Below, one piece after another: positions 1-48,520 of a stretch of DNA of 58,164 nt. This DNA comes from Rozella allomycis CSF55. Lineage: Eukaryota. The translations under genes were made by a program, and so were the position numbers. The notes beneath the pieces are model-generated. The model was not told where the DNA came from. It was given only the letters and a program-made list of their open reading frames with translations, and did no database searches. Every line of letters begins with the position of its first letter. The stretch's first letter is position 1. The DNA is taken from positions 1 through 58,164 of the forward strand of contig KE560993.1 in the NCBI GenBank assembly GCA_000442015.1, written 5' to 3'.

Positions 1-1070
1 TTGATAGCAGGCGGACTTAAATTTTCAACGCCAGCCAACTTTTGCTGGAACTGCTGCACAGTTATCTTTTTCTGTAACAGCTCGTCGATAGCACCGTCAT
101 ACACAGACTCTTTCAAGATCTTATCGATTCCGGCAACATAGCGTTGATCATTGAGCAAATTTGACTTTTGACTCCAAACAGCCAATCTATTGAGTGCCAA
201 TCTCGAGCTATCGTCCACGCCGCTATATTTTGCCAGTTCAGTAACATAGCTTTTAAATGCTTCCGGCGATATCCTCTTTTCGAGTGGTGCGGACCCCAGT
301 TTTCCAGAATACAGGGCCTCGTTTATATCAGCTTTCTCAATAACCGGCTTCACTTGACCATAATACGTAGCTGCCTGATCAGGAATCCTATTCTGCACCC
401 ATTTCGACAGTTCAGAAATTCCCCTATACCTGTCCAGCCCATCAGCGGTGTATAGTTTCATTATGGCTTCCTGGAACCCGCGTGGCGAAATTTGAGGAAT
501 CTTGCGTACCTCTGTAGCAAACTGATCAACGCTGATTTGCCTGTTCCGCAGCATGTCCGTAAAATACGCCAGCTTCTTATCGCGCAGCTGGTCCATTGCC
601 TGTTGTTTAGCATCGGGCGCGAGTGGCAATTCCGACATCCGTTTCCTGATTGTTTCAAACTGCTCCGGAGTAAGAGTGCCAACCTCGCCCATCCTACTCT
701 GCAGCATATCAGGGCTGACTCCCTTGATATCAATGTATGCCATTAGCTTGCCGAATGCGAGTTCATTAACCAGCATGTCTTTGGACGCCAGCTGATGTGA
801 CTTTGCCCAGTTTGATAGATTATTCAGAGCGCGTAATTTGAGTTCCGGGTCTGATGTAGCTTGGATCGAGGCTGCGAGTTTTCTGAATGATTCTGGCTCC
901 ATGGAACTGAACTGGTTCAGGTACCCGCCGAGCATCTTGTATTTGACGTACCGCTCGATCTGTGGTTGGGTGAGGGTTTTGATCTCGTTGGGATCGACGT
1001 AGACTGATTCCGCGGATGTTATAGATAGTATTGTAAAAACGAAGAGAATAGACAGTAGTGTATTGTGCAT
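1..1070 (-). CDS. Intronless secreted alpha-helical repeat protein, 3'-truncated by the window edge (candidate effector)
   Basis: ATG at 1070; frame open to position 1, so absent from the ORF track. Begins MHNTLLSILFVFTILSITSA|ES (signal-peptide-like); GC higher than neighbours. Confidence 0.8.
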   Translation of the reverse strand, partial: MHNTLLSILFVFTILSITSAESVYVDPNEIKTLTQPQIERYVKYKMLGGYLNQFSSMEPESFRKLAASIQATSDPELKLRALNNLSNWAKSHQLASKDMLVNELAFGKLMAYIDIKGVSPDMLQSRMGEVGTLTPEQFETIRKRMSELPLAPDAKQQAMDQLRDKKLAYFTDMLRNRQISVDQFATEVRKIPQISPRGFQEAIMKLYTADGLDRYRGISELSKWVQNRIPDQAATYYGQVKPVIEKADINEALYSGKLGSAPLEKRISPEAFKSYVTELAKYSGVDDSSRLALNRLAVWSQKSNLLNDQRYVAGIDKILKESVYDGAIDELLQKKITVQQFQQKLAGVENLSPPAI

Positions 1071-1288
1071 TTTTTGTGACATTTGTTACACATTATGGGG
1101 GATGAAACGCTTTAAAGTATTAATAGCAACTGTGAATAAAAATGGCAAACATGTCTCTAAAATAAATAAAATAATCATTCAAAACTATTTATTTCGTTAA
1201 TAATTATTTCACATAAAATAAAACGAACGCTCTTATTTACTCTACAAAAATATTTTCCATTTCTTTTAGACCCTTGCAAAGATAAAAG

Positions 1289-1858
1289 ATGTCTGACGAA
1301 GAGAACAAGCCAACGAGCGGTAAGCAACATTTACAGAGAAATATAGAAAATGTGTCTGTAGAAGCAATTGAAACTGCAGAAGAGGTGACCGAGGAGCCGG
1401 AAGTAGTGACCGGAGAGAATACAGAGGAGGCTGTTACTGAGGAGCCAGCTGGAGAGGAGAATAGTGAGCCAGATAACAGTGAGCCTGTTGAGGGAAATAG
1501 TGAAGAGCCAGCTGAAGAGCCAGCTGAAGAGCAAGAGGAAAATAGTGAAGAGAATGAAGAACCTGTTGAAGAGGAGCAAGAAGACAACGCCGAAGAACCT
1601 GTTGAAGAAGCAGAAGAAGAACAAGTAGAAAAAACTACTAGAACACCCCGCAAAAGAAAGGTAATAATTTAATAATGTTTGAGATAGAAAAAGGTTGATA
1701 GTGATGAAGAGGACTATGCACAGGGTGCGCCAAGTGATGATGAGTTGGCAACATTAGATTCAAGAAATATAATTCCAGGAGGCAGAAGGACCAGAGGAAA
1801 GAAGATAGATTTTAAAAAGCTGGTGGGAGATGATGATGAGGATGAAGATGATGAATAA
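1289..1858 (+). CDS. CHZ1: Chz1-like H2A.Z-H2B histone chaperone (acidic, CHZ motif), 2 introns
   Basis: After the intron starting at 1661 the frame reads DDELATLDSRNIIPGGRRTRGKKIDF, the CHZ-domain signature; Glu-rich N-terminus; TAA at 1856-1858. Confidence 0.8.
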
Positions 1859-1934
1859 AGTGTAACTAACCAAATAAACATAGTTAATTTTAAAGAGATA
1901 CAGAATTGAAATAATGATACATAATGATACTATA

Positions 1935-2025
1935 CAACTTTTTAAATTTTCAACTTTTAATATTTTTAAATTTTCAACTTTTAATATTTTCAAATACTCA
2001 ACTTTAAAATATTCAATTTTAAAAT
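1935..2025. repeat. Degenerate ~24-bp AT-rich tandem repeat between the convergent CHZ1 and SPT16 genes
   Basis: aaattttcaacttttaatattttt-like unit repeated about 3 times. Confidence 0.7.
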
Positions 2026-2029
2026 TTAT

Positions 2030-5000
2030 TTATTTCTTGACCTTTTTTGGAACACTAGTTTTACCTAGCTAAAAGAAATTCAAATTAATTACCTTCCAAT
2101 AAAATTCTCTTCTTTTCTTTTTCCTTTTCTTCTCTTCTAGTTTGTTCTTCTAGATCATCCCAATCCAATCCATCTTCATCTTCCTCATCCTCATCTTCTT
2201 CCGCATCGTCATCTTCATCAAACTCTTCATCATCGTCAAAATCTGATTCATTTGATTCAGACTCGTTGAACTGCTCATCGTTGAATTCAGAGCCAGATTC
2301 AGAAGACACGTGCTCTTCATCTTGCTGCTCAACATCATCGCCTCTAGCGAAATTCCAGCCGCCCATTTCATAGAAACCAATTGGATCTTCTTTGACTACT
2401 TTTAAGAGATTGTTCCAGTTAAAGTTGACGGGTGCTTCAGCATAGGCGACATCCATGGAATCTAGCCAATCTTTGATGTGTTCTAGACTATTCATTGGGA
2501 TTGAATTGATGTGCACTGGTTGAAGATTGTGATTCTTAAAGACAAACACTAGATCAAAGTTCTTTAATCCAAACTAGAATTTGAATAGAGTTGAATTGTT
2601 ACAGAAACTCTTTCTAACAATGCTAATTCAACATCAGGCAAAGTAACAACGAGAAAAGGAGTGTCTGTTAAATGAACGAGACATTCAGTTGTTGGTTGCA
2701 TTAAAACATTTTGTCTAAAAGGAACTCCATTAAAACCTTATTTTTAATTGAAAGTGTGTGATTACCTAATTATTAAATGATCATCTTTCAATTACCTATT
2801 CTTAAATCATCACCTTTTCAATTACCTATTCTTAAATTATCACCTTTTCAATTACCTAATTCTCTGAATGGAATGTCAACTTCAATGTTGGATTGCTCCA
2901 TAACCTTTTCAGCAAATTGCTTAAATTCAGAATTGATTCTCGCTCTTCTTTTTCTTTCTTCTTGTTCTTGAATCAATTCATCTTCATCAGCGTAATTGTT
3001 TCTTCTCTTTCCTCTACCGCCAGTTTCATCATAACTCAAATCAGTCACTTCTCTATAAAACTGTACATCCTTTTTTCAACATTAAAACTAGTTAATTACC
3101 TTTGTCTTCTTTTTACCAATTAGAATTGGATTCTTTAAATGAATATGAAGAATAGCAATCAATTCATTATCACACGGCTGAAAGAATAAATGTTTAATAT
3201 TAGAAAAGATTAAATCCAACTTGAAATCTCTCTTAACAAACGAAGTAAATCTCAACCCATTCGAATGAATTTCAATAGACCCCTCTGATCTCTTTCCATC
3301 AATTGGTCTCACATAAACATCTTTTAACACCAACAATTTATTTTTAGATTCAATTAGTTTCTCTTGCTCTACTAGATCAGCCATTTCCTTCTTTTCTGTT
3401 GCCTTCTTTGTTATCATTTTTCTCAACTCGTTGATATCTTTAAACACTTCTGTTAATCTAATAACATCACTAGACTTGAATGATATCGTTCTAATGTATT
3501 GCAACACAAACTCTTCAACGGAATTCTCATTCACTTCCTTTTTCACGGGAGTATTAAAATTTATTCTCAACAAAATCCCATCGCCTTCATCTGACTTTGT
3601 CGCATTCTTGATCGTTGAAATATGAAATGGAACTGCCAACCCATAAATTGGCAACACTACACTCTCTGCTCTCTTATCTACAAAGATCTTCAAATTAGAA
3701 ACTTCTCGAGGCAACAATGCTTCTCTCTTGTAACTCTCAAAATTATTCATCTCTTCAACAACCTTGTTATTCTCTGAATTATTCTTCTTGTACAAACTCA
3801 ACATCTCCTTGTTCAATCTCTCATGCAACTCATGCTGATGCTCCCTCCTCTTGTTCTCATTCAACTCCTCCTTTTCTTCAGTCCTCAACTTACTCCTCAA
3901 CACCTTCGTCTTTGACACTTGCTGCTTCTCTTCTTGCTCCCCAATCTCAAACGTTATCTCTTTCAGTCTCTTTGGTGCATCAGTCAATATTATAGGCTCA
4001 GTTGATGTCACCTTGATCGTATCAGCTACAAACAACGAATAATCTTTCTAATCCAAAACTAAATTCATTACTTTCTCCTTGAATCTCTAAATCTTGAAAT
4101 CCAATCGCTAAATTCAAAGTCATTCCACTAACAATTTCATTCTCATTCTTTCCATTAATCGTAAAATCTCCTTCTTTAAATTCTAAGCCAATCCCAAACC
4201 CAAAATTCTTCACCAATTTACTCTTCAATTCTGGTCTATTCTTTTCCACAAACTCAACCCCCTTCATGTAAACATCTTTAATTAAAACCCCATCTCTTAT
4301 CAACCCCAACACATATCGTTGCAATTCAATCAGAAATTCATAATTCTCTTCTTGCTCCTTTTTCGGATCAACAAAAAATGTTCTGCCCAAATTACTACAA
4401 TAACTTTTATAGCGAACTCCCATAAAACATATTATCGTCCCAAACTTCATTATATCAGAATTAGAAACCGCACTAGGCTTCAAATTATACTTGCCCCCAC
4501 TCTGTATAACTGGCGTATAGCAAATATCCAAATAGTTCTCATCAACCTCCTTGTTCAACCGCAACTTTTTCCTCTTCTTCTCATCCACAAAATACCCCTC
4601 AATGTTCCCACTAAAATCTTCATGCTTCACATTCCTCTCCTCATCAATTATTCTCATCAAATCATTCACAACATTATTCTTCATCGCTTCACTAACAACC
4701 TTGGCTGCTATACGCGTATTATTCTACTCTCATCTCTGCAACCACATTACCAATCCCTCTTCATCCTTCACTGCCAACACAGTCGATATCCCAAACGTCA
4801 CATCAACCCGTTCAAACTCTTTCATCTTCTCAACACACTTGCCATACACACGTCCACTAAACACATCCTTATTCAACATCCCAACTACCCTCTCTCACAT
4901 CACCCCTAGCATCTTACCCCATTCCTGCTCTTCTTCACATACCCAACAAACTCTTCAAATATCTCCTCCTCATTGCTCCCATCCTTGGCCCGCTTCAACA

Positions 5001-5401
5001 ACACAACCGGTATCTGCTTCTCACTCATCTTCACTACCAACGGCTCCAAATAACTCGCTACAAATCCCCAAAAAATATCACATACCCTTCTTCTGACTAG
5101 TCAAAACAACAAACACATCGCCAGTCAAACACATAACTGTCTCGGGAAACTCGGCTCCAAACAGCCACGTCTACCTCCAACAATCAAAAATCATTTACCT
5201 GCAAACAAGTCGTCTTTTGGTATGGGAGCTCCTCATTACTCTCCCCTGAAGCTACAACCAGCGCATCCGCGTGGTGGAAATACACATCTTCAGACTCGCG
5301 ACTCGCATTCTTTGCTTAGTCAAACGCAGAATTACCTTGAAATGAGTATGCAACAGGCGCAGCCGGCGGTGGAACAGTTTTTGGTCGATTTGGAACGACA
5401 T
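2030..5401 (-). CDS. SPT16: FACT complex subunit Spt16 (multi-exon)
   Basis: Motifs [73 protein letters not shown] and an acidic tail; ATG at 5401 ([14 protein letters not shown]). Confidence 0.95.
2737..2855 (-). other. Composite 119-nt intron made of four abutting GTAAT...AG units (30/30/30/29 nt)
   Basis: Minus strand: G|GTAATTGAAAAGGTGATAATTTAAGAATAG|GTAATTGAAAAGGTGATGATTTAAGAATAG|GTAATTGAAAGATGATCATTTAATAATTAG|GTAATCACACACTTTCAATTAAAAATAAG|GT. Removal restores RELG-FNGVP. Confidence 0.9.
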
Positions 5402-5576
5402 TTTTAACAAGGGTTTTTGGAAATTGGAGAAATAGGAGCTACAGAGTGTAATGAAATTAAGGCTTTTAGAGGCTTTAAATTCTTAATGACATTAATTTTA
5501 ACTGTTAAATTTAATACAAAATAAAAAGAAACTAATACTTTGAATATTCAAATTTAATAAAATTCCTTCAAAATTC

Positions 5577-6191
5577 CTACCCGACCAAACCCATTGTGAA
5601 GGTAGAATCTACTCTGGAATCTGCAAGCAAAAGTTTAACAACATCTGCATGACCTTTACTAGAAGCCCACTGAATAGCATAATTGCCGTTTGCACTTGGG
5701 TCTACTCTTGGATCTGTTAAAAGGTACTTCACAATCTCAGTGTGACCATTTCTTGCCGCTAGTCTTATCGCATAATTTCCGTCTGCTGAAGGATCTGTCT
5801 GAACACCTTTCTTAAATCTAAAGTCACGGTCTTGAAAAAATTGTAAAAGATCACATAGGCACGCAAACTGAAATGCGTAGTTAACGGCTTTTTGAGAAAT
5901 GTCATGTTGTTTTAGGAAGTTTAAGAAATGCACAAACCTTTTCCTGTGCTCACTGTCTTTAAGGATATCCTCACAGATATTTTTCGTGAGCGAAATACCG
6001 CACATTTGTTTAATTCTATATTGAATTACGTATGGGCATTTCCATGAAATAATCATTTCAGGATCTTGATGAAGAATATAGTCCAAGATGAGTAAACGAA
6101 TGCAGCGCGATGTTCTAAACATTTGTTTCATATCATTTAGGCTTAAGTGCGATAAAATTACAAGCCAAACCTCATGCGGGAAATAATCCAT
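5577..6191 (-). CDS. Intronless F-box plus ankyrin-repeat protein
   Basis: N-terminal FPHEVWLVILSHLSLNDM (F-box-like); two C-terminal DPSAxGNYAIxxAxxxGHxxxVKxLL ankyrin repeats. Confidence 0.8.
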   Translation of the reverse strand: MDYFPHEVWLVILSHLSLNDMKQMFRTSRCIRLLILDYILHQDPEMIISWKCPYVIQYRIKQMCGISLTKNICEDILKDSEHRKRFVHFLNFLKQHDISQKAVNYAFQFACLCDLLQFFQDRDFRFKKGVQTDPSADGNYAIRLAARNGHTEIVKYLLTDPRVDPSANGNYAIQWASSKGHADVVKLLLADSRVDSTFTMGLVG

Positions 6192-6230
6192 TTTCAAATG
6201 TGGCTGAAAAGGTTTTTCAAATATTTAGAA

Positions 6231-6418
6231 GGTACTCCGGTGGTCTACACCACGATGCTTACAGGTGCATGGTTCGAACCCCACCCTTGTTTCCGAATTT
6301 TCTGGGGTTTTTAGGTTGAAGCAGGGTTCGACTCCTTGGTGATTTTGACGATGTGGATCCCTCATCCTTAATAAATACGATTATTGAATTAATTGTATAT
6401 ATTTAAAATATAAAAAAA
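6231..6418 (+). mobile_element. tRNA-derived SINE-like element, copy 1
   Basis: A-box-like GGTGGTCTA, B-box GGTTCGAACCC at 6271, second B-box-like GGTTCGACTCC, A-rich tail; homologous to 37433-37570 on the minus strand. Confidence 0.65.
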
Positions 6419-7475
6419 CAATAAACTTTCTTCGTCTAAAGCTGAAGTTGAAACTCTTTCCATTCAAATTAACGGCATTAGAATAAATGATGAAACAACC
6501 AAAGGAATATCAGCCCTCGTCTCATTTAAGAAATCTACAAGACTTAGACTAGAAATATTTGTACAGAATCATGATATTGAAGCAGTGGTTTATTATTTGA
6601 GTATATTATTTATAGAACTAACAACTTATCTACTAGTAGAGTACAATTTAGATGAGTAGGCGGTTTGCAGCGGAGTCAAAGAAGTGACAGAGTAAGATCT
6701 GGGACATAATCAGACTCCGTTGCTAAATACCCTATTATATGTTTATTGCGGGAAATTGTGCTTTTCGAATGTGACGGAGGCCAAGGTTTAGGTACTGAAA
6801 TCCTATCAGTTTAACTATTCGTATAGCGCATAATCATATTCCCAATTTCCTATGTTTTTAAATCAATAATTAGGAAAGTTATTCAATAATGATATTGTCC
6901 TATTGTTAAGTTTCCAACGCAAAGAAATGCAGTGCGAATATCTATTTCATCTCCACGTAAGGTTAGTTAAGGCTTAAAACTCCTCAAGCCAGACTTGTTA
7001 AAGGAATGTAAAGTTGTACAAAACATTCTTAAAAGGTATACAGATCACTTCCACCTCTAAGCACTTAATTTAAACAGATACATAATATCAATGAGAACTT
7101 TGATCACTTCGAGTTCTTGGAGAAGCTTGTTTTCTTAGTCCTGACACCTAAACGGACTTAAGTATTCATATTTTAATTTGCGGTGAAGGGTATAACTTTG
7201 GAATTAACGTTTTCGCAAAGGCCACCAGATATTGCTATAGCCTATAGTAAAGTAATTTGATTTTTCTAAAGCCTTAGTTTCTAGCTCTTTTAAAATTATT
7301 GCTACTCTCTCACAAATCCCTTCGATTTGCTCTTCCCAGTCTATTTATAGACCAATTAATTATGAATATTTGATATATTATTATTATGTAAAAAAATATT
7401 TATATTAGCCGTTGGCTTTAAGCTTTTTTTTCGTGTAACTCAATCTCCGTTGGAAAGTAAAAATTGAAGGTAGTT

Positions 7476-7781
7476 TTATTGATAAAAGAATTTGTCTGAA
7501 TCTTCATCAAATATCTCCTTTGGATAGTAATTCTTGCCATAGTCAAAAAAGTCTTTGCGGTTGGCTATGTTGCCATAAAAATTCTTCCCGTAATTGAACA
7601 TGTCGTCTGTCGGAAACCACAGACTATACTCCTTTGATTCGTATAAATTAGTGTTTCTGGATCTGCTTTCTGTACTGCGCTTTGAAAATTTATTGCGCCG
7701 AAGGCTCTCAAGGGGGATTTTTGATGAGTTAACGGACATAATTATGGATATAAGGATACAAAAAAACCTATTTAGGTGCAT
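7476..7781 (-). CDS. Small secreted protein or peptide precursor with an internal repeat
   Basis: Signal-like MHLNRFFCILISIIMSVNS, dibasic RR/KR/RK sites, repeat DMFNYGKNFY / DFFDYGKNYY. Confidence 0.6.
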   Translation of the reverse strand: MHLNRFFCILISIIMSVNSSKIPLESLRRNKFSKRSTESRSRNTNLYESKEYSLWFPTDDMFNYGKNFYGNIANRKDFFDYGKNYYPKEIFDEDSDKFFYQ

Positions 7782-7991
7782 GTTTTTGGGGGCATTAAAG
7801 GGTCTTTAATAACTTTGATGACAGAGGGATTGACAGTTTTCAATTATTCGTTGATCGATCATGTTTCCAGTCAGCTTCTTTTTGAAATGGGAAATTGGGA
7901 ATACATTACTGTCAAAGTTATCGCCTAAATTAACACCACGAAAATTTAATTTAAAGAATGAGTCAAAGTTCATGGCTTGGCTTTGGTCGCT

Positions 7992-9310
7992 ATGCAATTC
8001 CGACCCTTCCAAAGTTCCGTGAAATTATTTCAATCCACTTTATCAGTAAACTCAACCCATTCATATATCCAGGCAAAGCAAATCTTAATTGCTAAAACAT
8101 CCAATCCGAAATCCAAGCTCCCAAACCACCAATTAGTTTTTGGCCACACATTCACCGATCACATGCTGGAGATAGATTGGTCCCAAAAATCAGGATGGGA
8201 AAAACCTACAATCCACGAGTTTGCAAACCTGAATCTGAGTCCCGCTTCAGTGGTGTTCCACTATGGCTCAGAGGTGCGCTTATTGTTGTGTGTTGATACA
8301 GTGCTTTGAAGGATTAAAAGCATATAAAGACAAGAATGGAGAAATTCGAATGTTCCGACCGATGAAAAATATGGACCGGCTGTACTTGTCCGCCGAAAGA
8401 CTCGCGCTACCAGTAATCATTGAATGTTTGGAATACAGACCTTTGACAAGAATGAAGTGTTGGAATGCATGAAAAAGTTGGTCAAGATTGATTCATCTTG
8501 GATTCCAAGGGAAAGGGGATACTCATTATATATAAGGCCTACTTTAATTGCCACTCAGGTAAGTTGCCCAATCGAGAATTTCAAGGACACGTTAGGGGTT
8601 GGACCGTCAGCGAAAGCCAAGTTTTTTACAATAATGAGCCCAGTGGGGCCATATTTTAAGAGTGGATTTGCGCCAGTTTCTTTAGTTGCTGATAACAGGT
8701 ACGCCAGGGCATGGCCTGGTGGAGTTGGGTCATTTAAAGTGGGCGGGTAGCTAAATAGTGTAAAAGTTATAGAAATTATGCACCATGTATCAAGCCGCAG
8801 TTAGAAGCGGCAACTAAAGGGTACCACCAAAACTTGTGGCTGTTTGGCGAGGAACTAACGGAGGTGGGAACTATGAATTGTTTTGTGTTTTGGAAAAATG
8901 AAAACGGCGGTAAGTTTTTAGTATTTGAATGAAAGAACGTGAATTGATTACACCACATTTGGATGGAACTATTTTGCCAGGAGTCACTCGAGACAGTATT
9001 TTGACGTTGACGCGAGAATGGAAGGAGTTTAAAGTTACTGAAGGCAGAATAACTATGAGCCAGTTAATTCGAGCAATTAAAGAGAATCGAGTAACGATTT
9101 GGCGGTTAGATGGATTAGTTAATTGAGATGTTTGGTGCAGGAACTGCATGTATTGTATGCCCTATCGAGCGAATTAACTATAAAGGCATTGATTATAAGA
9201 TTCCGATTGACGAAAATCTAAAGGCTGGAAAACTGACAAAACGATTGATGGATACGATTCTTGCCATTCAGTATGGCGAAGTTGATCATGAATGGTCTAT
9301 AAAATTGTAG
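7992..9310 (+). CDS. BAT1: Branched-chain amino-acid aminotransferase, probably mitochondrial, 6 introns
   Basis: [65 protein letters not shown]. Confidence 0.95.
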
Positions 9311-9548
9311 AGTTTCGGGGCTAGATTTTAAACGAAATAAACAGCTTAAACAAATAGTTAGTCGAGTAGATATTTGTAATTTTTACTAAATTGGTTTTAA
9401 ATTGATATTATAATCAATTTGATTCCTACTTTCACTCTTTACTTTAAATTTCCCGCTATATCATATGCTATAATATGCTAAATTATTTGTTGATATTATA
9501 TCGTGTATATTCTTCGAATTGTTTCCATCTAATTTAGTAAATTTCCAA

Positions 9549-12500
9549 ATGCAGGCACTACAAATCCTCCAATCGGATTTGCTAGCCCTATCAAATGAAT
9601 CTCGGAAAAAGAACATTGAAATAAAACAGGTACTTTAAATCTGCATGCTGAACTAGGCGATAGAAAAGCTGCTGGTGCACCTGAAATCGGACGATCCGCA
9701 ATCAGGTAACAAACGCAGTCTATCTAAACAGACCTGTACGATGGATTTTTCAAGTGTTTGGAGAGCAAGAACGGCAAGCTTGTGTCTATTGCGATAACGT
9801 GCCTGTACAAGATATTTTCGAATGACCTATTTCCGCGGATTTTGGTAGGCTTGTGTTGTTGGTTGGAGGTAGGTTGATTTTGAGCGGTTGTTTGAGCTGC
9901 TTGAGATGAATTTGGGTGGGACTAGTGGGGAGGTTCAGTTGAAGGTTTTGCAGATCTTGTCGTCGATTGTAGCGGCGTGTGAGATTACGAGTGAGGAGAT
10001 GTTTGATTCTATGAGGCTTGTGATGGTGCTGCATGAGCAGAAGAATGCTGTGGTGAGCAATACGGCCAAGGCGTCGTTGAACCAGATGGTTATATCGTCG
10101 TTTATGCGGTATAAGAAGGATGGGGTTAATCGGGAGTTTGTGTTGATGTTTTACCAGGTAGAGATATGATTATGGGGTGAAAGGATTTGTGTGGGATGCA
10201 GGGGGATAAGGAGGCCAAGTATTTGAAGAATGTGAATATACCGAAAGAGCTGGGGTATGAGTTGATAGAGTCGATATTTTTGAATTTTAATGAATTGTTT
10301 GAGCAGGTAGAAATGTTTGTGGATGATGATAGAATGAGGAGATGGTTGAGTGTACGAGGAGCAAGTTGTGCCCATTGTTGGTTAAGGGGTTGAATGATAA
10401 GCAAGAATTTGGGATATTTTTGAGGATTATTAGATTGATAAAATTGTTTATTTTGTATTTTTCGAAACTGTTGGAGACTGAGAGTGAAATGTTTTTGAAT
10501 TTGTTGTTAAAAGCGAGTGGGAATGCAACGCAGCCGATGATGCAAATTTTAGCGATTGAAGCTTTGAGGGATATTTTCAAGTCTGTTTCATTGTAAGAAG
10601 GAGGAGAATAAATAATTGTAGAATGTTGTTCAAGTTGTTTGATTCAAAGAAAGAAAAGGTGCAAGTGTATTCGATATTTATGAAGAATGTGATAAAGAGT
10701 GAGAATGAGAGTGTTACATTGACATTTGAGAATAGATCTATTAATTTGTAAATAGATTTGGAATGGTTTATTCTAGTATAGATTTACTTGACAAGACAGA
10801 AGAGCCGATTGTGGGAGAAAAGGAGATAATATTTGCTTCTATTCAAGCAGTGATGGGGTTTGTTGATGTATATTATCAAGAAATAAAAACAGAGGAGGAA
10901 ATGAAGAGGGATGAATTGATAAAGATTTGTGGATTTAAATTGAAAAATAAAAGAGAAGAAATTTTGGAATTTTCAGAAAAGAAGAAATTAATTTCCAAAG
11001 TGGCTGAAGATTTAATTTTATTTTTAGAAAAGATTTGTAAAAATGAAATGGAATTGGGATTGTATAAAGATTTATTAGATTGTATTTATAAATTATTTTG
11101 TTTATTGATTTTCTATAAAGAAGAAGAATTTGGCATGAAAATATTAAACTTTTTGATTCCAACGATTGTAATACCTAATGAAGAATATAAAGTATTGGAT
11201 TGTTTGAGTTTGAAAAGTTTGTTGAATGTTAGATTGATTGTTTATATTGGATATACCCTTGCAGATAGATTAGAGGATGAGTTTGAAGTAATTTTTAGAG
11301 TTTTGTTTAAGATTGAAATATTATTTAATTCTAAAAATTGTAGAAAACAAACAAATGAAATTTTGAATGAAAATAGTTTTATTGAAGAAATTTCAAATCT
11401 AATTTTAGAATCATTTTCTGTAAATTTCGTTAAAATATTTTCAATTTTTACAAATTTTATTAAAAATGTTTTATTTTCAGAGAATGAATTTTCAGTTGTA
11501 AGAAATAATCAAAAGCGAGAAAATGTGACATTGTTGGAATGGTTGAAGATAATTTCATTAAAATTTTCATTTAAATTTTTGGATGTTAAATATGAACAAT
11601 CATGGAAAGATTTAATAAATTTGTTGAGAGAATTAGTTGAACATTTTGATTTGAATGTGAGAGAACAAAGTTATTTAATATTTCATGAATTGATATTTGA
11701 TATTATTGAGCAGATTAATATAGAAGGTGAGACTGTAGCACAAGAGAGTATTTTGATTGCAATGGATAAATTTAGTGATGTTGAATTGTTTGATGTTAGT
11801 AGACTAGTTGTTGATTCTTATAATAAACTACTTCAAACGTCTGGTCAATTTCTGTCTGTTGGATGGGATTATGTTTTATCTATTCTCTACAAACTATCTG
11901 ATGGTTCAAAAAGAGTTGTTAAATCTAATAAACAAAGTATAATAAAAACATCATTCCCCTGTCTTCAATTGATATGTACAGATTACTTGTCAAATCTGAG
12001 TAATGAAAGTCTTTCTAAATGTATTGAAATAATAGAAAGATTTTGTTCTAGTAATGATGATTTGAATATTAGTTTAACTTCAATTGGTTTACTTTGGAAT
12101 GTTTCTGATTGTTTAAAAGAAAAACCTTCAACTGAAATTTGGAAGAAATTAATTTTAAAAGTTTCAAATCTTTGTTTAGATTTAAGACCAGAAGTCAGAA
12201 ACAGCGCAATTCAAACTCTTTTAAGATCAATTTCATTTTCTTCTTCTCTTTTAACATCTGAATTATGGAATTTTGTTTTTCAAGATATTTTGATTTCAAC
12301 TTTAAATAAAATTCTAGTTTTAAAAAATGAAAATCCAATTCAAGATGAAAATTCAGAAATTAAATTTCATCATTCTAGATCTACTTTTGAAAAACAATTA
12401 GATGAAACAAAAAGTATTTTTCTACAGGGGTTGGGTAAATCTATTTCTGAAAATTTAATTCATTTAAATGATAAACAATTTGATTCTTTTTGGATTTCTT

Positions 12501-14064
12501 TTTTTAATATTTGGAAACATTGTTGCAAATCTGAAAATTCAGAAGTTGCCATTGCTTCATTTAAATCTGTTAAATTTATTATTTCAGTTAAAGAAAATTA
12601 TGATTTCATGCAGCCTCATTGGATTTCTTTTTATGAATGTTGGTTGGACATTTTATCGCACATTGCTAATACCCCCACCTACTCTCAAGATGTTGCTCTA
12701 CACGCTACAAGTCTTCTAGCTGACATTGCAAACAAATCTTCATCTTTTACATCAAATCAACTCGAATCTATTTTCAATCTAATCTACAAAATTCTATTGT
12801 TTCCTTTCGCTAATGAAATGGTCCTGGATGTAGAAATTCTATCTCCTCTCCAATCAACCCTAGTAGATCAATTGGAGAAATTAGAATCAAAATTCACTAC
12901 AATCATCACATCTTTTTATGTAAAATTGGGAGAATTAACATTTCTAAATTTAAACAAGGAACGTGGGAAATCTTCATTCATTTCTCTTTCTAGAAGAATG
13001 TTTACTAAATGTTTAACCCTGGTTTCTGAAAAATCAGATATCATTCATGATCAAATTCCATCAATTGTTCAGGTAATTTATTTCACTNTTTAATATTCTT
13101 TTTTAAAAGATGTATGAAATTGCTATCAAGTTGCATCATCAGTGTCCTACTGGGGCTGGGAAGACTCCTTTTTGGAAACATGCCATTGAATGCATTCAAA
13201 GCATTTTCAAGTCTTTATCAAATCCAAATGACAAAGGTTTATCTAATGAGAAAGTTTCATCTAATGATAAAGGGTTACCAAATGCAAATGACAACTTTGC
13301 TTGGCTGGCCATTGGAAAATGCATCAAATCAATCTATGAATCTCAATCTTCATTCAAAGAAAATACCTCCATCGACGACATTGAAAAAGACGAAGATTTC
13401 CTAGTTGATTTCACTGCAAATGTCATCAACACTATTCTTTCAATCAACCTACCAAAAGACTCTTTAGAACTAATAATCCAAGGCATTTACAAGGGTTCTC
13501 TCTTGTACAATGATCTATTCGTCATCAATCCAGCCTCCAATCAGCTAATCGGTCCAAAGCAGCCAGACTCTGTCTTGCCATGCGCCTGTCTGCGTGAAAA
13601 ATTAGCGTCTGTTTGTCTAGCAAATCTATTCACTCTCTGCTGCACCAAAACCTCTTTAACAAACCAAATCACCATCCCATTCCTCTTAAAACGATCAGAA
13701 TTCGTCTTAAAGTCCTTCATTGAACGGAAATCAGTTCTCAACCGGCATCCATTCGAAAGGTTTCCAAATAATTTCTTTTTTAGTAGGATCAGTCATGACG
13801 AGTTTTTATTTATTTTGAATGGACTGGCCAGGCTGGATTTGGAAGTGGGAATCATGCAGCCTGTGTCGCAAGGTAAGGTTGGTGGTTGATATTGATTTAG
13901 ATCCGGTGAAATTGAAGTTGCTGTCTGGAAGCAAGGCACATTTGTTTTATTTATACCCGCTGCTGTGCCAGTGTCTGAGATGCGATGATCATGCTATTAC
14001 CGAGGCGGTGCAAAAGTGTCTCGTTTTGTTGGGAAATGAAATGGGATTGGAAGATGCCATTTAG
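9549..14064 (+). CDS. MON2: Mon2 (Arf-GEF-like endosome/Golgi trafficking protein)
   Basis: LQSDLLALSNESRKK start, EVQLKVLQ, SFPCLQLICTDYL, LNISLTSIGLLWNVSD, RPEVRNSAIQTL, HHSRSTFEKQ, HLFYLYP. Confidence 0.93.
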
Positions 14065-14216
14065 AGATTTAAAGATTTATATCAAACTAAATAAATAAAT
14101 TATTTTGCTTTTATTTTTTAATTTTACTAGTTAATCAGCGGAGGTTCTTTGCAGTTTTCTACTCTTTTTGTTTTCTACTCTTCTTGTTTTTAAAGAGCGA
14201 AAATTCCTAGTTTGAA

Positions 14217-16366
14217 ATGGACGAAATTCCTGTCAAGGCAGTGCCCACTATTGACTTGTCAATCCAAGAGCCTGCTCTTTCCAGTCCCCTATCTTCAAAA
14301 ATATCCAGACTGGACGTGTCGAAAGATTCGCCAGCCGCTGTATTGTCCGCTGGAATGGCGCAAATCGATGTCAAAGCAAAGAAACTAGTATACTCTGAAA
14401 AGAAACTAAAACTGGATATTCTGCCGTTTACTATTGCACGTAATATTTCACAAAATTTGTGTTTAGAATTGTGCTCGTTTCATTCGTGGTTGCAGGAACA
14501 CTTGGCACGGGATGGAGGAAGTGCTTTTTCGGGGTTTAGTGGGGAGCATGAAGCGCTGCTGATTTGCTTGTTTCAGGAAAGGTATGTTGTTGGTTTTGAT
14601 GTGAAAGTGAATTGGAGATGACAAAGTTGTGTTTGAAGATTTATGATAGTTTGTTTCCTAATACGCCTGAAGAAAGTAATCATGTTTGTGGGTTTAGAGT
14701 ACTAGAAAAGATGGAATATGTGTCGGTTATTCAGAAAACTATAAAGAGTCTCGGTGAAAGGGTTAATTATGGAGTACAGGAAAGTGGTTTTCCGCCGGTA
14801 TGACTTTATTTGTTCTTTAATGTAGTCGTTTAATATTTGGAGATGGGAAGCTAAAGGTTTAGATAAATTACCTCAGGATATGAGGGAAATGTTGATTGCT
14901 CGAAGGGAGTCTAGGAAGCAAGTAAGCTCTAATCTATGAATTGATAGACTCGTGAAGAAATATCAAGCTTGCTCGATAAATTGGATCCAGAAACTAAATC
15001 CTCTCTAAAAACATCAAAGTCATTGAAAAGAAAGCTGATTGACGATGAAGAAAAGCAAAGAGTATCATTTATACAATATTTCTTAATAGGTTTCTGAAGA
15101 AAAGAAGAAGCAAAAAGAAATGGAAAGAAAATTAGAAAAAGAAAAGAAAAAGTTGGAAAAGGAACAAGAGAAAATAGAAAAGAAGCAAAAAGAATTGGAG
15201 AAAAAGTTGGAAAAAGATAAAAAGCAAGGAAATATTTTAAATTTCTTTAAGAAAACTACCCCGCCTCCAAAAGAGTCTAAAGATGAGTCGATTGTTCTGG
15301 ATTCCTTTGATGAACTGTTTAGACCATTTCATTTAAAGCCTAACGCTGTTTTAGCACCGTGTAATCATTTTAAAACGATGGCCGCTCCACAGGGAGAAAT
15401 ACTTGATGATATAAAGTCTAGAGGACCTCTTTTAGCGCATAAAAGCTCAAACAGAGTTAAATTGACAAAAGTGAACGGTTTCACTGAACCATTTTACGTT
15501 GTTATGAAATTGCTAAAATTCGATGAGGATATTCGCCCTGCGTATTTTGGTAAATTCATAATTTTTTGTGGATAGGATCCTTTAGGAAAGAATTAAAAGG
15601 AGTTGGTTTTAGAAGGCCATTCGTTAAAGATACAAATGTCTTTGATTATGAAGTCGACAGTGGTGATGAATGGGAAGATGAAGGGGATGGCGAATCGTTG
15701 ACATCGTCTGAAGGAGAAGAACATGATCTTTCAGATGCTGAGGTAGATAGCGAGGCGGTAACTGTTAAATAGAGATTTCATTTAGGAAGACTGGTTGGTT
15801 CCAACAGGGTATCTATCAGAGGATGAAGGAATGGAGGGCAATGAAGCGGCTGAAACAAAGAAAATTACGAAAAAATTAGAAAAGTCTTCTAAAAAGGTAA
15901 ACAGGAATTTCACATCTGAATAGTTAAAACTTTCACAATTGGTTCCAACTGTCATTGGTCCGATATTGAAAACAGAAGACCAGAATGAAACTTTGAAATC
16001 TTTTCAAGCAATATTTTTGGATCAGCTGGAGCCTTTCGATCCTTTCGAGGTCCCTGTTGTAGAAGAGAAAGAGAATAAACCACCTGTTGATCCCTTCACA
16101 CCCGATTTATTAACCGTATTAGCCAAATTAGTAGATGACAATCCAACTTCGATTAACATATTAGTGGATGATTTCTTTACGCAGTAAATTCTAATACATA
16201 TCTTATAGTTAGAACTAAAGCATCAATTTCAAGGAAGAAATTGGAAAATAAGATTAATGAAATCGGGTTTAAAAAGAAACTTGACGGAGAAGTAAGCTGG
16301 TTTTTGTTTCAGTTATAGGCATTATGTTGGCACTTGAGAGAAGAATTCGAATGTTTGCTAGATTAA
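14217..16366 (+). CDS. RLF2: Chromatin assembly factor-1 large subunit (Cac1/Rlf2/CHAF1A), about 11 introns
   Basis: KER coiled coil, QGNILNFFKK PIP-like box, KLLKFDEDIRPAYFG, DYEVDSGDEWEDE, WLVPTGYLSEDE. Confidence 0.9.
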
Positions 16367-16464
16367 AATAATTATTAAAACAATTTTTATTACTTAAACT
16401 TTTTAAACAATTTCTTGCTCATTGTATACTCACAGTCTTAAACCCTTGCAATCAATTAATTGTT

Positions 16465-17061
16465 ATGTTGTTTCGAGCAAATTTGAATCGCTCCAAGGGC
16501 ATCTTGACTCAATCAATTTTTAGCAGAAATGTGTTTGTTAAACCCGAGAATCGCTTCCTTGAATTGGAAAAGATTATCGATGAGCATTTCTTCATGACTC
16601 CATCCCAAAAGCAATTGGATAGATTGTACGCTGATAAAATCATTCCTAAAACTATGTATGATGTATTGACTGAAGAACTAAATGAAAAACAGCATTATCG
16701 CCGTAAATCTTAACTTGAATTTTTCATAAAGGCAGTCAATTGAACTGGGAACGCTTTGCATACTACTTTTGCATTCCCATGGCATTTGTTGGTGGTCTTT
16801 CGGCTTATTACGAGATGAGTCACAGAATTGAACATAGCAAAGAACATTATCGCAACTATAAGCCTTACCATTTCTTGCGTAATCGCGTCAAGGTAAGACA
16901 TATGACTTTTTTGCCTGTAGCCATTTATGTTTGGTGATGGAGACACAACCTTGTTCTGCAACAAGGAATTTGAATACATTCCTGGCTATGTTCCAGAATG
17001 GTACCAAAAGGAGCTTGAAGCTGCTGAAAGAGGTGAAGCCCCAGAAAAGGAGCATCATTAA
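16465..17061 (+). CDS. COX13: Cytochrome c oxidase subunit 6A (Cox13) with an extended N-terminus
   Basis: Spliced frame WERFAYYFCIP-TM...YHFLRNRVK|PFMFGDGDTTLFCN matches the COX6A YxxLRxRxKPFPWGDGxxTLF motif. Confidence 0.85.
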
Positions 17062-17087
17062 TAAAATGAAGTTGATGCAATTTAAAT

Positions 17088-18216
17088 TTATTCAGTGTTT
17101 GATGGAAACAGACAATACTGATTTGACAATTGGAGGTCATTCTTTTCAACGTTGAGCGTGTAAACATACATGTATCCATCCATCGATGCCACATATAAAT
17201 GTGAAGAATCGCTAATTACTCGTTTTAAAATTTGTTACGGCGAAAACGCGCATATACTATACGCTTTCTTTGGGAGTTTGATGCTAACAAAATCTCTGAT
17301 CGGCTCCAAGGCGTCTACAACTACACTGGGAATATAGAGACCCAGATTTCTTTCTTCAAAGCGAATTTAGTTTACCTTTTTTCCATCTTGTATAGATGAA
17401 TAGTTGTCTCACTAGTCGCAGCCAAAATGTTCGATTGTTGATTGAATGTCAGATATTGTATGTTCGTTGGAACTGCCCCTCGTCTAAATTGAAATAGTTT
17501 TTCTCCGCCAGGTAAGGAAAATACTCTGATAATTGTTCCCTACATATAATTGATCATCTTATCACACCTTTTCACTGCTTGTGGCGACAAAAGTTCCATC
17601 GATATTGAAAGATATATTGCAAATTCTATTTTTATGGGCATTTATTACATTCATGGATACAAGGTTGCCGGCTTCATAGATAATAACATCACCACTTGTT
17701 GAGTTGCAAGGGAAGGCAAGAAAACACGGAGAATCACAAGGAGATAGTGAAATGATACCTTTTCTTCCAATTTTAACATCGAGGTTCTGAAGAAGGGTCA
17801 TGCTATTTAGATCGTAAATTTGTATGCTGTCATCAAATGATAAAACCAATCTTTTTCTATTAAGCTTGACGGATAATATTGCCCTTGGAAATTGAAGCTC
17901 ACAAATCACGGTTTTTCTCTATAATGAATATTAAGGTATCTTACTTTGGTGTTGTACAAGACAAGCTTTCTTGGACTTTGATTAATTGATTCGCCTGAAC
18001 CAACAAGGGCTAAAAGGCTGGAGCTAAAAAGCATTTCGACTATGCCGTAATGTCCTTCTTGTATAACAGTATCTACATTGTTGTACCGTGTTGACAAATT
18101 AAACAGAATGGAATTAAGGAATATACATAACATGAATGGTTCGCTGAAAAACAAAGGCAAGTGTAATCTTGATTAAATGTTAACCATTGGATTTGATTTT
18201 CGTCCACAATTCTCAT
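17088..18216 (-). CDS. ATG18: PROPPIN WD40 autophagy protein Atg18/WIPI
   Basis: [51 protein letters not shown] lipid-binding motif. Confidence 0.92.
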
Positions 18217-18323
18217 ATGCGCAGCCTCTGAAATTTCTTAAATATTAAAGCCAAGTTCACAGGTGTTTGGTGGTTGGAATGAAAACTTATAATATAACTG
18301 CATACCGTATATGTATCGTTTAT

Positions 18324-19727
18324 TTATGCTGAATTGAATAAATTATTGAAACTTGACTTTAATGCTCTTGGTAAAGTCATAGATGCTCGGACATTTTGAA
18401 TATCTTGTACAATTTTCTCTATTTTATTACATGGCTCTTCTTCTTGTAGTTTTTTGAGAATCTTAGCAGTATAATCTACAGCAAAGTAGTCACTACTTGC
18501 TTGAACAACTTTCAAAAAACCTGGTAGGCCAACAATAACTTGCCAGTATTTGTATTTTTTATTGTTGGGAATTATTTTAACAATCGCTACTATGTTTTTC
18601 AAAGATATCTTGTCTAATGAATATTTCATCAGTATTTCGAAGATCTTCTCATTATCTTGCATTGAAACAATCTTAACTGATTCTCGTAGGAATTTTAAAT
18701 ATGTAGACAATGATGAGTTGGAAAAAGGATCTTTTCTGGAAAGAAAATGGTCAACAATTTTTGGGCGCTCAAAATACACGGCAAGCTTAAGACTATCATA
18801 TTCAAGATCAAACAATCTTTCCGTCCAAAATAAACTTTGGCAGTACACTTTTGGAGAATCATTAAAGAATGCCACTATCGGTATGAGCTTTCGGACTACA
18901 AATTGTTTCATTGGCGCTTCTTCGCTTAATGCTGCCCAGTCTTCTTCAATGGCAGTTAAAATCTTAGTTAATAAAGTTTCAACAGTATAATTTTGATTCA
19001 AGTATGGATTATTCCTAACAAAAGCCAATATTTTCTTTGATTCTTCAGGATCACTTGTTAGCCTCAAAACGAGTGTAATAACCTCTAAATAGAAAGATGA
19101 ATCATGAATATATAATTCTCTATACTTTATGTACACTTTAACCGAGTCATGTTTTATAATTTCACCCAGAACCGCTAACGGCCATCGATTCTTTTCAACG
19201 ACCAATGAAAATATCATCCCCAAATCATTCTTAATAATAAAGGGCACATGATCAATATTTACGAAGGATTTGGCCATATTCAACAAAATTTTGAACTCGG
19301 ATTCTACGGAGTTGCCTGAATGCACTTTAACAATGTGTTTTTCGTTGAATTGTTTTAAAAAATTTGTATGTTCAAATATTTCATTGAAGCATTCTTGGTA
19401 GCTTATATATAATTTACATTGAGAAAGAAAGTAATGCAAAGTTGTATAATTGGGTTTTAATGAAGTTAAATACTCAATCCTAGCATTTTTGTATTGAAAT
19501 ATTGACAATTGTAAATCATTCTGCGCCAGTTTAGATGATTCTATTTTCTCGTAGTCCAGTGTCGATCCCATTTCTCCACTTACACTTACGCCCGAGCAAG
19601 TGGAATGACCTAGATCTTTGCTTTCGCAAAAATGAGAACCTTCGTTGTTGCCTCTGGGCTTCAAATTTGTTGCATAGACTTGATGAAGGAAAATATAGAG
19701 TGAAAGTAACAGTCGCGTCAGATCCAT
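18324..19727 (-). CDS. Intronless secreted protein with degenerate ankyrin-like helices, function unknown
   Basis: Long ORF; likely start MDLTRLLLSLYIFLHQVYA (signal peptide); LKLAVYFERPKIVDHFLS resembles an ankyrin repeat. Confidence 0.65.
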   Translation of the reverse strand: MDLTRLLLSLYIFLHQVYATNLKPRGNNEGSHFCESKDLGHSTCSGVSVSGEMGSTLDYEKIESSKLAQNDLQLSIFQYKNARIEYLTSLKPNYTTLHYFLSQCKLYISYQECFNEIFEHTNFLKQFNEKHIVKVHSGNSVESEFKILLNMAKSFVNIDHVPFIIKNDLGMIFSLVVEKNRWPLAVLGEIIKHDSVKVYIKYRELYIHDSSFYLEVITLVLRLTSDPEESKKILAFVRNNPYLNQNYTVETLLTKILTAIEEDWAALSEEAPMKQFVVRKLIPIVAFFNDSPKVYCQSLFWTERLFDLEYDSLKLAVYFERPKIVDHFLSRKDPFSNSSLSTYLKFLRESVKIVSMQDNEKIFEILMKYSLDKISLKNIVAIVKIIPNNKKYKYWQVIVGLPGFLKVVQASSDYFAVDYTAKILKKLQEEEPCNKIEKIVQDIQNVRASMTLPRALKSSFNNLFNSA

Positions 19728-20316
19728 GTGTGGCGCAGTTGAAATTGCAACGTGGTGGAAAAAAATCATGCAAAACTATTCTCATAGCAATTTTACTGCT
19801 GCGAAAATCATTATGGTATGTCAAAAATTTATAAATGGCGATAATTATAATTTATTGACATTGCCCTTTGTAGTCTGTGAATGCAAGTCTCCGCAGAATC
19901 ATTAATGTGTTATGTGATACTTAGTTTTAGTCTTAACTATTCTTTTCGACATTACGAACAATTGAATAAGGAAATTCCTCCTTAATTCCATACAGAATGG
20001 GAAAAGTAAACAAGCTACATAAATTAATTATCAACGACATCTTTCGTCATAATTTGCCAAAAAATATTCGTAACCATTAATTAGTTCCTTCAGTTGACCT
20101 ATTTGTAAGGCAGTTAAGACGAAATAGAAGTTATAGAACAGATTTCGCCATTTCTTTAGGTCCTCCTAAACATCATATTCGCAACAATGAACGTGGGAAT
20201 ATACAATAATAAAAGAAAGATAGGTAAGACGCTGCGTAATTCTTGGGCTCTCTAGTCCTTGACCAGGTAGGAATTAAAAAACAAATTTGTGATTTTTCTG
20301 GAACCTGGCCGGGAGA

Positions 20317-37703: not shown

Positions 37704-37776
37704 GCGATCATAGCGCAGCCGGCAGCGCGTAAGTCTCATAATCTTAAGGTCGTGAGTTCGAGTCTCACTGATCGCA
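37704..37776 (+). tRNA. tRNA-Met(CAT), elongator type
   Basis: Acceptor GCGATCA/TGATCGC plus A, D-arm GCGC/GCGC, anticodon loop CT-CAT-AA, T-arm GTGAG-TTCGAGT-CTCAC; T-runs downstream. Confidence 0.95.
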
Positions 37777-37798
37777 CATAATTTTAATTCTTTTTGAA

Positions 37799-44126: not shown

Positions 44127-44170
44127 ATATTCGCCCTTTTATTTACCCTGGAATTTCACAAAATTCTTTA

Positions 44171-47862: not shown

Positions 47863-48028
47863 TCGATTCAAAGCCACGAAACCATTTTTGAGTTTCCATT
47901 TGTTCAAAATTTAATTTCTACTAGTGTTTATTCGTTATTTTAATAAGAAATATGAATTGGTGGACGGCTAAGCAACTAAATATATTAGGGAAAATGAATT
48001 ACTCCCAAAACCCACGTGGCTTTGGAAA

Positions 48029-48520
48029 ATGTGGTTACTCTTTCTCTTGGCGTTAGGTGGTATATTTTCAAAAAGCATAGATTTATACTCCACTGTTTCG
48101 TATTCTAGGCGTAATTGTGATGGTCCAGCAATCAGAATAAGTACTTTGAGAATAGACAGCAATGTCAACAACACTTTGTCTTTTTCAATTGCAAACCGAT
48201 GTGTCAATTATAGAAATTTCTCGTTTATTCAATATAAAGGGTTTCCGGATCAACTTGTAACTCCAGGCTATGAATATTTATGTGGTAAAAACGAGAGCGG
48301 AAGCTTTTGTTTGCTTATGAATCATTGTTTTTCATTCATGAGTTGGTCAGATAGAAATAGTATTTTACCAGAGATAAAGAAAGGCAGGGTCATTTTTGGC
48401 GGGGGTATACCGTTTTATGAATCGTATGAGCCAAGCGACGATGAATGCGAAGACATTCCAAGTTTGAGAGACCTTTCGTTAGAGTACACCGATATTACTA
48501 CAGTTTTCCGTGACAAATAA
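48029..48520 (+). CDS. Secreted Cys-rich protein, family member 1
   Basis: Signal MWLLFLLALGG; intronless; close paralog of 48873-49361. Confidence 0.8.
   Translation: MWLLFLLALGGIFSKSIDLYSTVSYSRRNCDGPAIRISTLRIDSNVNNTLSFSIANRCVNYRNFSFIQYKGFPDQLVTPGYEYLCGKNESGSFCLLMNHCFSFMSWSDRNSILPEIKKGRVIFGGGIPFYESYEPSDDECEDIPSLRDLSLEYTDITTVFRDK

Follow-up and report, generated by a model that had tools for sequence, protein, structure and literature searches.

How does a gene rid itself of a 119-nucleotide (nt) interruption in DNA where almost all predicted introns are 26 to 29 nt long? The question is raised by SPT16, the gene for a subunit of FACT, on a contig of the fungus Rozella allomycis CSF55. We analysed 58,164 nt of this contig (KE560993.1), here called the window, with a guanine-cytosine content of about 0.34. 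The interruption splits exactly into four abutting units, each of which looks like a complete mini-intron. A second gene in the window, eIF4E, contains a stack of two. We propose that such stacks are probably removed one unit at a time.

The interruption in SPT16

The coding region of SPT16 occupies positions 2030-5401 on the reverse strand and starts with an ATG at 5401. Its large exon (3091-4047, reverse strand) has as its best protein match the FACT subunit Spt16 of R. allomycis CSF55, at 99% identity. The standard genetic code fits the window, and long open reading frames (ORFs) are present under translation table 11. Apart from the 119-nt stretch, the introns of SPT16 measure 26, 28, 28, 26, 27, 28, 30, 29 and 28 nt. 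With P0001, the annotated protein of 1000 aa, threaded onto the DNA, the introns come out at 26, 28, 28, 26, 27, 28, 30, 119, 29, 28 and 40 nt. This requires the removal of exactly 2855-2737, which the annotation treats as a single intron. The annotated model ends at 1992, and the 40-nt intron that it adds starts with GTC and is doubtful.

The 119-nt stretch (2737-2855, reverse strand) is a phase 1 interruption between RELG and FNGVP. The exon before it ends with ...AGAGAATTAG and the exon after it resumes with GTTTTAATGGAGTTCC. In three named fungal homologues the RELG/FNGVP junction is contiguous. Threading and homologues thus agree with the original prediction, which had identified the gene as SPT16 and the conserved junction as split by 119 nt.

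Of 38 SPT16 loci from metagenomes, 33 likewise have the junction unbroken, and the remaining five do not cover it cleanly. Several metagenomic SPT16 loci carry introns at other positions. Because the 33 covering loci lack it, the intron position seems peculiar to the Rozella lineage, and by this comparison it looks lineage-specific. There is no close relative of Rozella among the 38 loci (best segment identity 66%). Hence they provide no orthologous array for comparison.

Each of the four units begins with GTAAT and ends with AG, exactly as had been predicted. In the direction of transcription, unit 1 (2826-2855; 30 nt, GTAAT...TAG) is followed by unit 2 (2796-2825; 30 nt), which has one interior base unlike unit 1. 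Unit 3 (2766-2795; 30 nt) is a diverged copy of units 1 and 2, and unit 4 (2737-2765; 29 nt, GTAAT...AAG) completes the array. The units meet at three internal TAG/GTAAT junctions (2826/2825, 2796/2795 and 2766/2765), that is, at exons of zero length. The exon end TTAG, placed before the next GTAAT, gives the same sequence context as the original donor. Such a parse is not expected by chance: GTA..AG units of 24-32 nt tile none of 200,000 random intron-like 119-mers.

All four units carry splice signals that are ordinary or better for the window. Their scores lie at the 94th, 94th, 84th and 54th percentiles of the window introns, all at or above the median of the census described below. The donor scores of all units are 5.3-6.1 and fall inside the census range.

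How are the units related to each other? Tandem Repeats Finder reports a repeat at 2761-2863 with period 30, 3.4 copies, 90% matches and a score of 153. Units 1 and 2 are identical at 29/30 positions, and unit 3 matches each of them at 26/31. Judged by these alignments, units 1-3 are tandem copies of one whole 30-nt intron, splice sites included. Unit 4 matches unit 1 at 19/31 and unit 3 at 20/30 positions, and five of 103 unrelated window introns align to unit 3 just as well. A kinship of unit 4 to units 1-3 is not demonstrable from such alignments. Hence the claim that units 1-3 are duplicates holds, while the age series that was read into all four units does not. A further argument had been that the junctions are kept while the interiors diverge. 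It has no statistical power: there are only about six differences among units 1-3, and the chance that they all miss the five essential bases is about 1 in 3.

An introner-like or dispersed intron family would have many nearly identical members at unrelated sites. Outside the array, a search of the 58-kb window for copies of unit 1 with up to 9 mismatches finds none, except for a low-complexity match with 9 mismatches at 1960-1989. Inside the array, unit 4 carries TTTCAATTA, the reverse complement of TAATTGAAA, which is the 9 nt after the initial G of units 1-3. This complementarity may be accidental, may assist splicing or may be left over from the way in which the units arose.

Retaining some of the units would damage the message. 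All 15 possible partial-retention products contain a premature stop, within 2 codons in 14 of them. Hence splicing errors in the array would be visible to surveillance.

The array is also found in independent DNA. None of the sequencing runs listed with the locus is an RNA run. We aligned the four best-covering runs to positions 1-20000. They cover introns and intergenic DNA and have no intron-skipping joints, which identifies them as genomic DNA with no bearing on expression. One contig of run X5 (record 17; 4174 nt) covers the whole of 1-3181, where it differs from the window by 41 mismatches and 8 gap letters. Because of the 41 mismatches it represents a different haplotype or strain, and because there are only 8 gap letters it does not lack a 30-nt unit. 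The array therefore has the same length in a diverged haplotype or strain and is not peculiar to this assembly. The array interrupts the contigs of runs X1 and X2, whose differences are listed at 41 nt from contig ends. In unit 3 these two runs have a changed base at 2779 and one extra nucleotide at 2785. These variants may come from short contigs of one unit placed on another, and we draw nothing from them.

Intron size, acceptor choice and a second stack

To see the array in its context we need to know what an intron looks like in this DNA. Our gene finder uses dynamic programming with codon log-odds and donor and acceptor matrices, and contains no length term. The final run allowed 20-36 nt per unit, permitted abutting units and kept gene models scoring at least 12. 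The resulting census comprises the predicted introns of the 58-kb window.

Single introns in the census number 103 and have a very narrow length distribution: one of 24 nt, 27 of 26 nt, 22 of 27 nt, 29 of 28 nt, 16 of 29 nt, two of 30 nt, three of 31 nt, two of 34 nt and one of 35 nt. Thus 94 of the 103 are 26-29 nt long and none exceeds 35 nt. One of the two 34-nt calls is really a 28-nt intron, which restores ...ILCLSLTKWIHLN in a Bin3-type methyltransferase. A run that allowed 18-45 nt produces the same sharp peak at 26-29 nt. The lack of long introns is weaker evidence than the sharpness of this peak, because the predictor sees long introns poorly. At 30 nt the array units lie at the upper edge of the normal intron size, in line with the prediction that they are of normal size. 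The published record on Rozella points the same way, within its limits. Putative introns of about 30 nt are described in its S23 gene (PMC6349667), and a study that included Rozella gives 29 nt as the lowest fungal intron median (PMC8042348).

The signals in these introns are few. The donor is GTA in 102 of 103, A follows at position +4 in 72, and position -3 of the acceptor is T or A. No branch motif is evident in the 103 introns.

Acceptor choice follows a simple rule. Of the 103 predicted introns, 100 have as their acceptor the earliest AG that lies 26 nt or more from the GTA donor. Lowering the threshold to 25 nt leaves 95 acceptors correctly predicted, and raising it to 27 nt leaves 73. 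The AGs that are passed over include eight at 24 nt and five at 25 nt. The method does not have this rule built in, because the requirement for an AG that keeps the reading frame would let a false rule succeed in about one third of cases.

Applied to the array, the rule gives a clear result. Counted from the GTA of unit 1, AGs lie at 12, 25, 30, 42, 55, 60, 71, 90 and 119 nt. The rule picks steps of 30, 30, 30 and 29 nt, which are exactly the four unit borders.

Is the SPT16 array the only one of its kind? To find out, we looked across the window for chains of GTA..AG units (24-32 nt, score at least 8) that abut one another, with first-order Markov shuffles as a control. The scan finds two chains, where 0.05 are expected: the SPT16 array and a chain at 44459-44516 on the forward strand. 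With a looser score threshold there are six chains, where 0.43 are expected.

The second chain interrupts eIF4E between GIKPMWE and DTENQNGGK. Its 58 nt consist of a 28-nt unit (44459-44486) and a 30-nt unit (44487-44516), which meet in an internal AAG/GTAAT junction at 44486/44487. The two units show no sequence kinship, and their scores lie at the 51st and 96th percentiles. Both obey the acceptor rule (28 and 30 nt), as do the four units in SPT16. Taken alone, each of the six has the donor, acceptor and spacing of a U2-type mini-intron of R. allomycis. A tiling into GTA..AG units of 24 to 32 nt exists for 820 of 200,000 random intron-like 58-mers (0.41%).

With the whole stack removed, the protein profile is unbroken. 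On the Pfam IF4E profile, the upstream exon covers positions 33-67 and the downstream exon 68-94, with none missing or extra. The homologues P0122 and P0123 read ...VWED... at this place and are free of any insert. Unit 2 has a length divisible by three and no in-frame stop, so that its retention alone would add 10 residues. This is what the public annotation contains: P0125, from this contig, reads PMWE-VITFFIIYIK-DTENQ, with unit 1 spliced and unit 2 coding. P0121, from a 9154-nt contig of a second assembly, reads PMWE-YIK-DTENQ. Both proteins fuse the neighbouring PP2C to eIF4E (42922-44874, forward strand) through an intron of about 180 nt. A stand-alone eIF4E gene exists at 44171-44874 on the forward strand, with an ATG at 44171, introns of 28, 29, 28+30, 27 and 28 nt, and 176 aa. 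The fusion models with VITFFIIYIK or YIK are probably mis-annotations. The 10 residues of VITFFIIYIK would directly follow the Trp-Glu of PMWE, which we take to contact the mRNA cap, and they are most likely an unspliced mini-intron.

Two further stacks of two units are possible, although by homology their second unit may be either intron or coding sequence. One is in a MON2-like gene (9845-9896, forward strand; 24+28 or 28+24 nt), where the DCB profile leaves about 14 positions for 9 or 17 residues. The other is at the 3' end of SPT16 (2036-2092, reverse strand; 28+29 nt), in an unconserved tail. We rejected a chain at 39068-39010 (reverse strand), in which the first unit is coding sequence of a UGCG-like glycosyltransferase (...YPNVNATLLIG) and only the 27-nt second unit is an intron. 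This intron (39010-39036, reverse strand) has a length divisible by three and no in-frame stop, and a stricter finder had read it as KNIICICQ. We also rejected a chain at 38732-38785, which is antisense to the UGCG-like gene.

Does the window contain long introns of another kind? When the finder is allowed introns up to 500 nt, it calls a flat scatter of long ones, which run adjacent genes together. An additional penalty of -3 for long introns leaves 11 proposals of at least 46 nt. The one of 59 nt is a partial parse of the SPT16 array. Six (157, 177, 281, 282, 303 and 349 nt) we judged to be spurious joins, without a homology test. For four of the ten long proposals other than the array, there is a demonstrated alternative in the form of a canonical mini-intron of 27-30 nt. 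The proposal of 102 nt at 35447 is really a 30-nt intron plus coding sequence. The proposal of 269 nt at 26112, where the sequence has an N and a 26-nt repeat, comes down to a 27-nt intron and coding sequence. The proposal of 188 nt at 44019 joins PP2C to eIF4E, where the stand-alone gene has a canonical first intron of 28 nt. A 48-nt GT-AG intron at 46576, in a scramblase gene, would delete seven profile positions. We inspected the proposals down to 32 nt, and those of 40, 42, 42, 38 and 34 nt (the last at 47329) have better solutions of 31, 0, 27, 26 and 28 nt. Some lengths allow more than one reading: 34 or 28 nt at 30197, 35 nt at 22882, and 37 nt at 13073, which contains an N.

The scramblase intron is itself unusual. 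Only when a 27-nt intron at 46550-46576 (reverse strand; GTAAAT...TG) is taken out does the Pfam Scramblase profile run on unbroken. The match of the upstream piece extends to profile position 52 at residue 74, and that of the downstream piece begins with position 57 at residue 10. The TG end may be a base error, or distance may override AG in the choice of the 3' site.

A further odd interruption is found in a STE11-like kinase, in which ...HRD/IKGGN... is split by 53 nt (about 21992-21940, reverse strand). No GT-AG solution restores the HRD/IKGGN motif. The stretch starts with ATATCCTTT (ATATCC), has TTTAAC shortly before the 3' end, and its last bases are AC (AA in the other register). These signals make it a candidate U12-type intron, which would be removed by the minor spliceosome. 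Within the limits of the method, every verified GT-AG interruption longer than 35-37 nt is an exact stack.

The rest of the window holds a few features that are unrelated to the stacks. In X1 and X2, the summed contig depth climbs at 6004-6670 to 13875 and 23769, some 50-fold the depth of the flanks, where neighbouring bins have a few hundred. Many loose contig ends lie at 5607-5654 and 6263-6408. The stretch looks like a dispersed repeat that adjoins an ankyrin-repeat ORF (5580-6224, reverse strand). Rfam and ARAGORN give no match at 6004-6670; across the window, Rfam and tRNA scans yield only a tRNA-Met (37704-37777). Three paralogous intron-less ORFs of about 170 aa (47972-48517, 48861-49358 and 50924-51439, forward strand) share a hydrophobic N-terminus and Cys-rich motifs (...FSFIQ.KGFP..LVTPGYEYLC...). 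They may form a family of small secreted proteins. At 26408-26463 (forward strand), a 26-nt tandem repeat and an N at 26434 break the reading frame of a PGS1-like gene (PLD-type), which is probably an assembly problem. Further single Ns are at 13088 and 28942.

How the stacks may be removed and how they may arise

To explain the stacks we propose that the major spliceosome of R. allomycis acts as a ruler. In a simple version, it would need little beyond GTA as a donor and would take the first AG at least 26 nt downstream as the acceptor. Each GTAAT of the array would then pair with the AG 29-30 nt away. Because the first-AG rule selects the unit borders, the internal AGs are predicted to be used. 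The excision of a unit would join ...TTAG to the next GTAAT and regenerate a 5' splice site, such that each zero-length exon would serve as a ratchet point. Four small lariats would appear in place of one, and the mRNA would be the same whatever the order of removal.

We hold it fairly likely that the 119 nt consist of four concatenated, autonomous mini-introns rather than one long intron, and that a ruler-like spliceosome removes the units one at a time through zero-length exons. The intron census, the acceptor rule and the independent second stack strengthen this reading.

A ruler would also affect how introns multiply. Units 1-3 were born by the tandem duplication of a complete 30-nt intron. 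Because each added copy is self-sufficient, such a duplication would be nearly neutral here. Mere lengthening beyond the reach of the ruler would be lethal in an essential gene, and a stack would persist. The anatomy, the narrow range of intron lengths, the acceptor rule and the second stack are observed; unit-by-unit excision, the ruler and neutrality are all things that we infer.

More tentatively, and with some reservation, we extend the proposal to the whole genome. The major spliceosome of R. allomycis might be confined to excising stretches of about 26-31 nt, in which case any longer GT-AG interruption in the genome would be a concatemer of autonomous mini-introns with zero-length exons. 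The tandem duplication of whole introns, or a new intron at an existing AG/GT border, would be a near-neutral route by which intron number grows.

Several points weigh against unit-wise removal. The case for it comes entirely from DNA. The census is the output of a predictor on 58 kb and not a set of transcripts. The stack units are also on the long side for this DNA: 30 nt is the length of four units out of six, but of only two census introns out of 103. The public annotations differ from our models, since they give SPT16 one 119-nt intron and make unit 2 of eIF4E coding (VITFFIIYIK) or partly coding (YIK). A zero-length exon might be too crowded, because the 3' and the 5' site lie on the same 5 bases, and this might hinder assembly. 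Furthermore, the 119-nt RNA can pair nt 2-10 (TAATTGAAA) with nt 102-110 in unit 4. The resulting 9-bp helix could bring the outer splice sites together for removal in one step. The fold has a minimum free energy of -17.8 kcal/mol (z = -2.46), and 5 of 200 shuffles are as good.

One-step removal is what an ordinary 119-nt intron with a 30-nt minisatellite would undergo, with the internal AG/GT sites as unused decoys. The public annotation models it that way, and the helix could shorten the effective distance. A duplication across the exon-intron border would make an AG/GT at each joint automatically, with no need for selection. The 53-nt intron in the STE11-like kinase could mean that longer introns are tolerated in this cell. 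However, that intron bears minor-spliceosome signals, and no GT-AG intron longer than 35 nt is found among the 103, the two stacks apart. The helix buries the very 5' splice site that it should present. A single step would have to skip six qualifying AGs under a rule that 100 of 103 introns keep. The minisatellite itself is real; it is in step with whole intron units that obey the acceptor rule, and its internal sites may or may not be used. Lastly, the eIF4E stack is not repetitive and has nothing like the SPT16 helix (z 0.14), yet it is still exactly tileable (p about 0.004). We therefore regard a single step as doubtful, though it deserves to be taken seriously.

Alternatively, the units could be spliced independently but inefficiently. 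Such a regulated or leaky stack would act as a brake on the amount of SPT16, as premature stops lead to decay of its mRNA, and it would not be neutral. All 15 partial products contain such a stop, and four sequential reactions multiply any inefficiency. Unit 2 of eIF4E has no in-frame stop, however, so the logic does not carry over to the second stack, and SPT16 is a housekeeping chromatin factor. A brake of this kind seems improbable to us. An assembly artefact, with miscounted repeats at a locus that in truth contains one intron of 29-30 nt, is more improbable still and would come as a great surprise. Units 1 and 2 are one base apart, 30-nt repeats are hard for short-read assemblers, and the X1 and X2 contigs do break inside the array. 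Yet the X5 contig passes through it with no unit lost. No joint that skips 30, 60 or 90 nt occurs among the indels listed (there are 40 more besides these), and the eIF4E stack has no repeat to be miscounted.

If unit-wise removal is correct, intron length can be capped by a spliceosome from above as well as from below, and genomes can circumvent the cap by stringing minimal introns together. Programs for gene finding and read mapping that keep default bounds on intron size would then mis-model such loci. On the genome-wide reading, the two stacks seen among about 110 introns in 58 kb would scale to some hundreds in the genome, and published gene models would be wrong wherever the stack units have no in-frame stop, as in eIF4E. 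SPT16 would be a concrete and datable case of a gain in intron number by intron tandem duplication, at a position that is absent from 33 other covering SPT16 loci. The stacks would also be a natural system for the long-standing question of how very short, signal-poor introns are recognised.

Relation to known forms of splicing and intron gain

How do the stacks compare with splicing systems that are already known? The closest parallel is recursive splicing at ratchet points, where zero-nucleotide exons divide long introns of Drosophila and vertebrates (bioRxiv 10.1101/006163, PMC8605326). In both cases a 3' site abuts a 5' site (AG/GT), the 5' site is regenerated and the intron is removed piecewise, in Rozella presumably so. 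The juxtaposed AG/GT sites are present in Rozella, and the DNA provides for a regenerated 5' site; a host intron of kilobase size is absent. Animal ratchet introns are tens of kb long and their segments far exceed a minimal intron, whereas the Rozella stacks measure 119 nt (SPT16) and 58 nt (eIF4E) and every segment is a minimal intron. The presumed cause differs as well: an upper length limit in Rozella, the pairing of distant sites in animals. In animals the intermediates have been demonstrated, while the Rozella stacks are known from genomic sequence only.

The original prediction considered recursion to be established mainly in very long animal introns. This is true as far as it goes but incomplete. 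Spliceosome profiling in Schizosaccharomyces pombe reports two zero-length exons, and the one described lies in a 336-nt intron of a snoRNA host transcript (bioRxiv 10.1101/226894). This case resembles ours in that a fungus has an internal 3' site beside a 5' site and removes the intron recursively. In contrast to Rozella, S. pombe has introns of widely varying length, and the case involves neither tandem duplication nor a link to a size ceiling.

Stwintrons of filamentous fungi and Lipomyces are also removed by consecutive standard splicing reactions, and duplication of a donor element has been proposed as their origin (PMC7138796, PMC9024468, PMC8469720). A stwintron has an internal intron lodged within the donor, acceptor or branch element of an external one, whose signal becomes complete only with the first excision; this makes the order of removal obligatory. 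The Rozella units abut and could be removed in any order. Each has its own complete GTA and AG with no overlap, and thus they are not stwintrons.

Uniformly tiny introns are known from Paramecium, at about 25 nt (bioRxiv 10.1101/2021.08.05.455221), and from myxozoans (PMC13644364). Rozella shares with these organisms a very narrow length range and signals reduced to approximately GTA...AG. The passages searched in the myxozoan study and in a comparison of ciliates (PMC13685798) mention neither recursion nor stacks of mini-introns; the word tandem is either absent or refers to gene or genomic duplication.

Tandem genomic duplication is listed as a mechanism of intron gain (PMC13685798). Like this mechanism, the events that we propose for SPT16 would create new functional pairs of splice sites. 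In the classical AGGT-duplication model, an exonic segment with AGGT is duplicated and one new intron arises from exon sequence. In Rozella it is instead an existing intron that appears to have been duplicated whole, which adds to the intron count with no exon between the copies.

Our search of the literature on Rozella splicing, and on stacked, abutting, tandem, contiguous or recursive mini-introns, found no description of such an arrangement. Most likely the Rozella stacks are a form of recursive splicing that is set apart by three properties: segments that are minimal introns, birth by the tandem duplication of whole introns and, probably, an upper limit on intron length.

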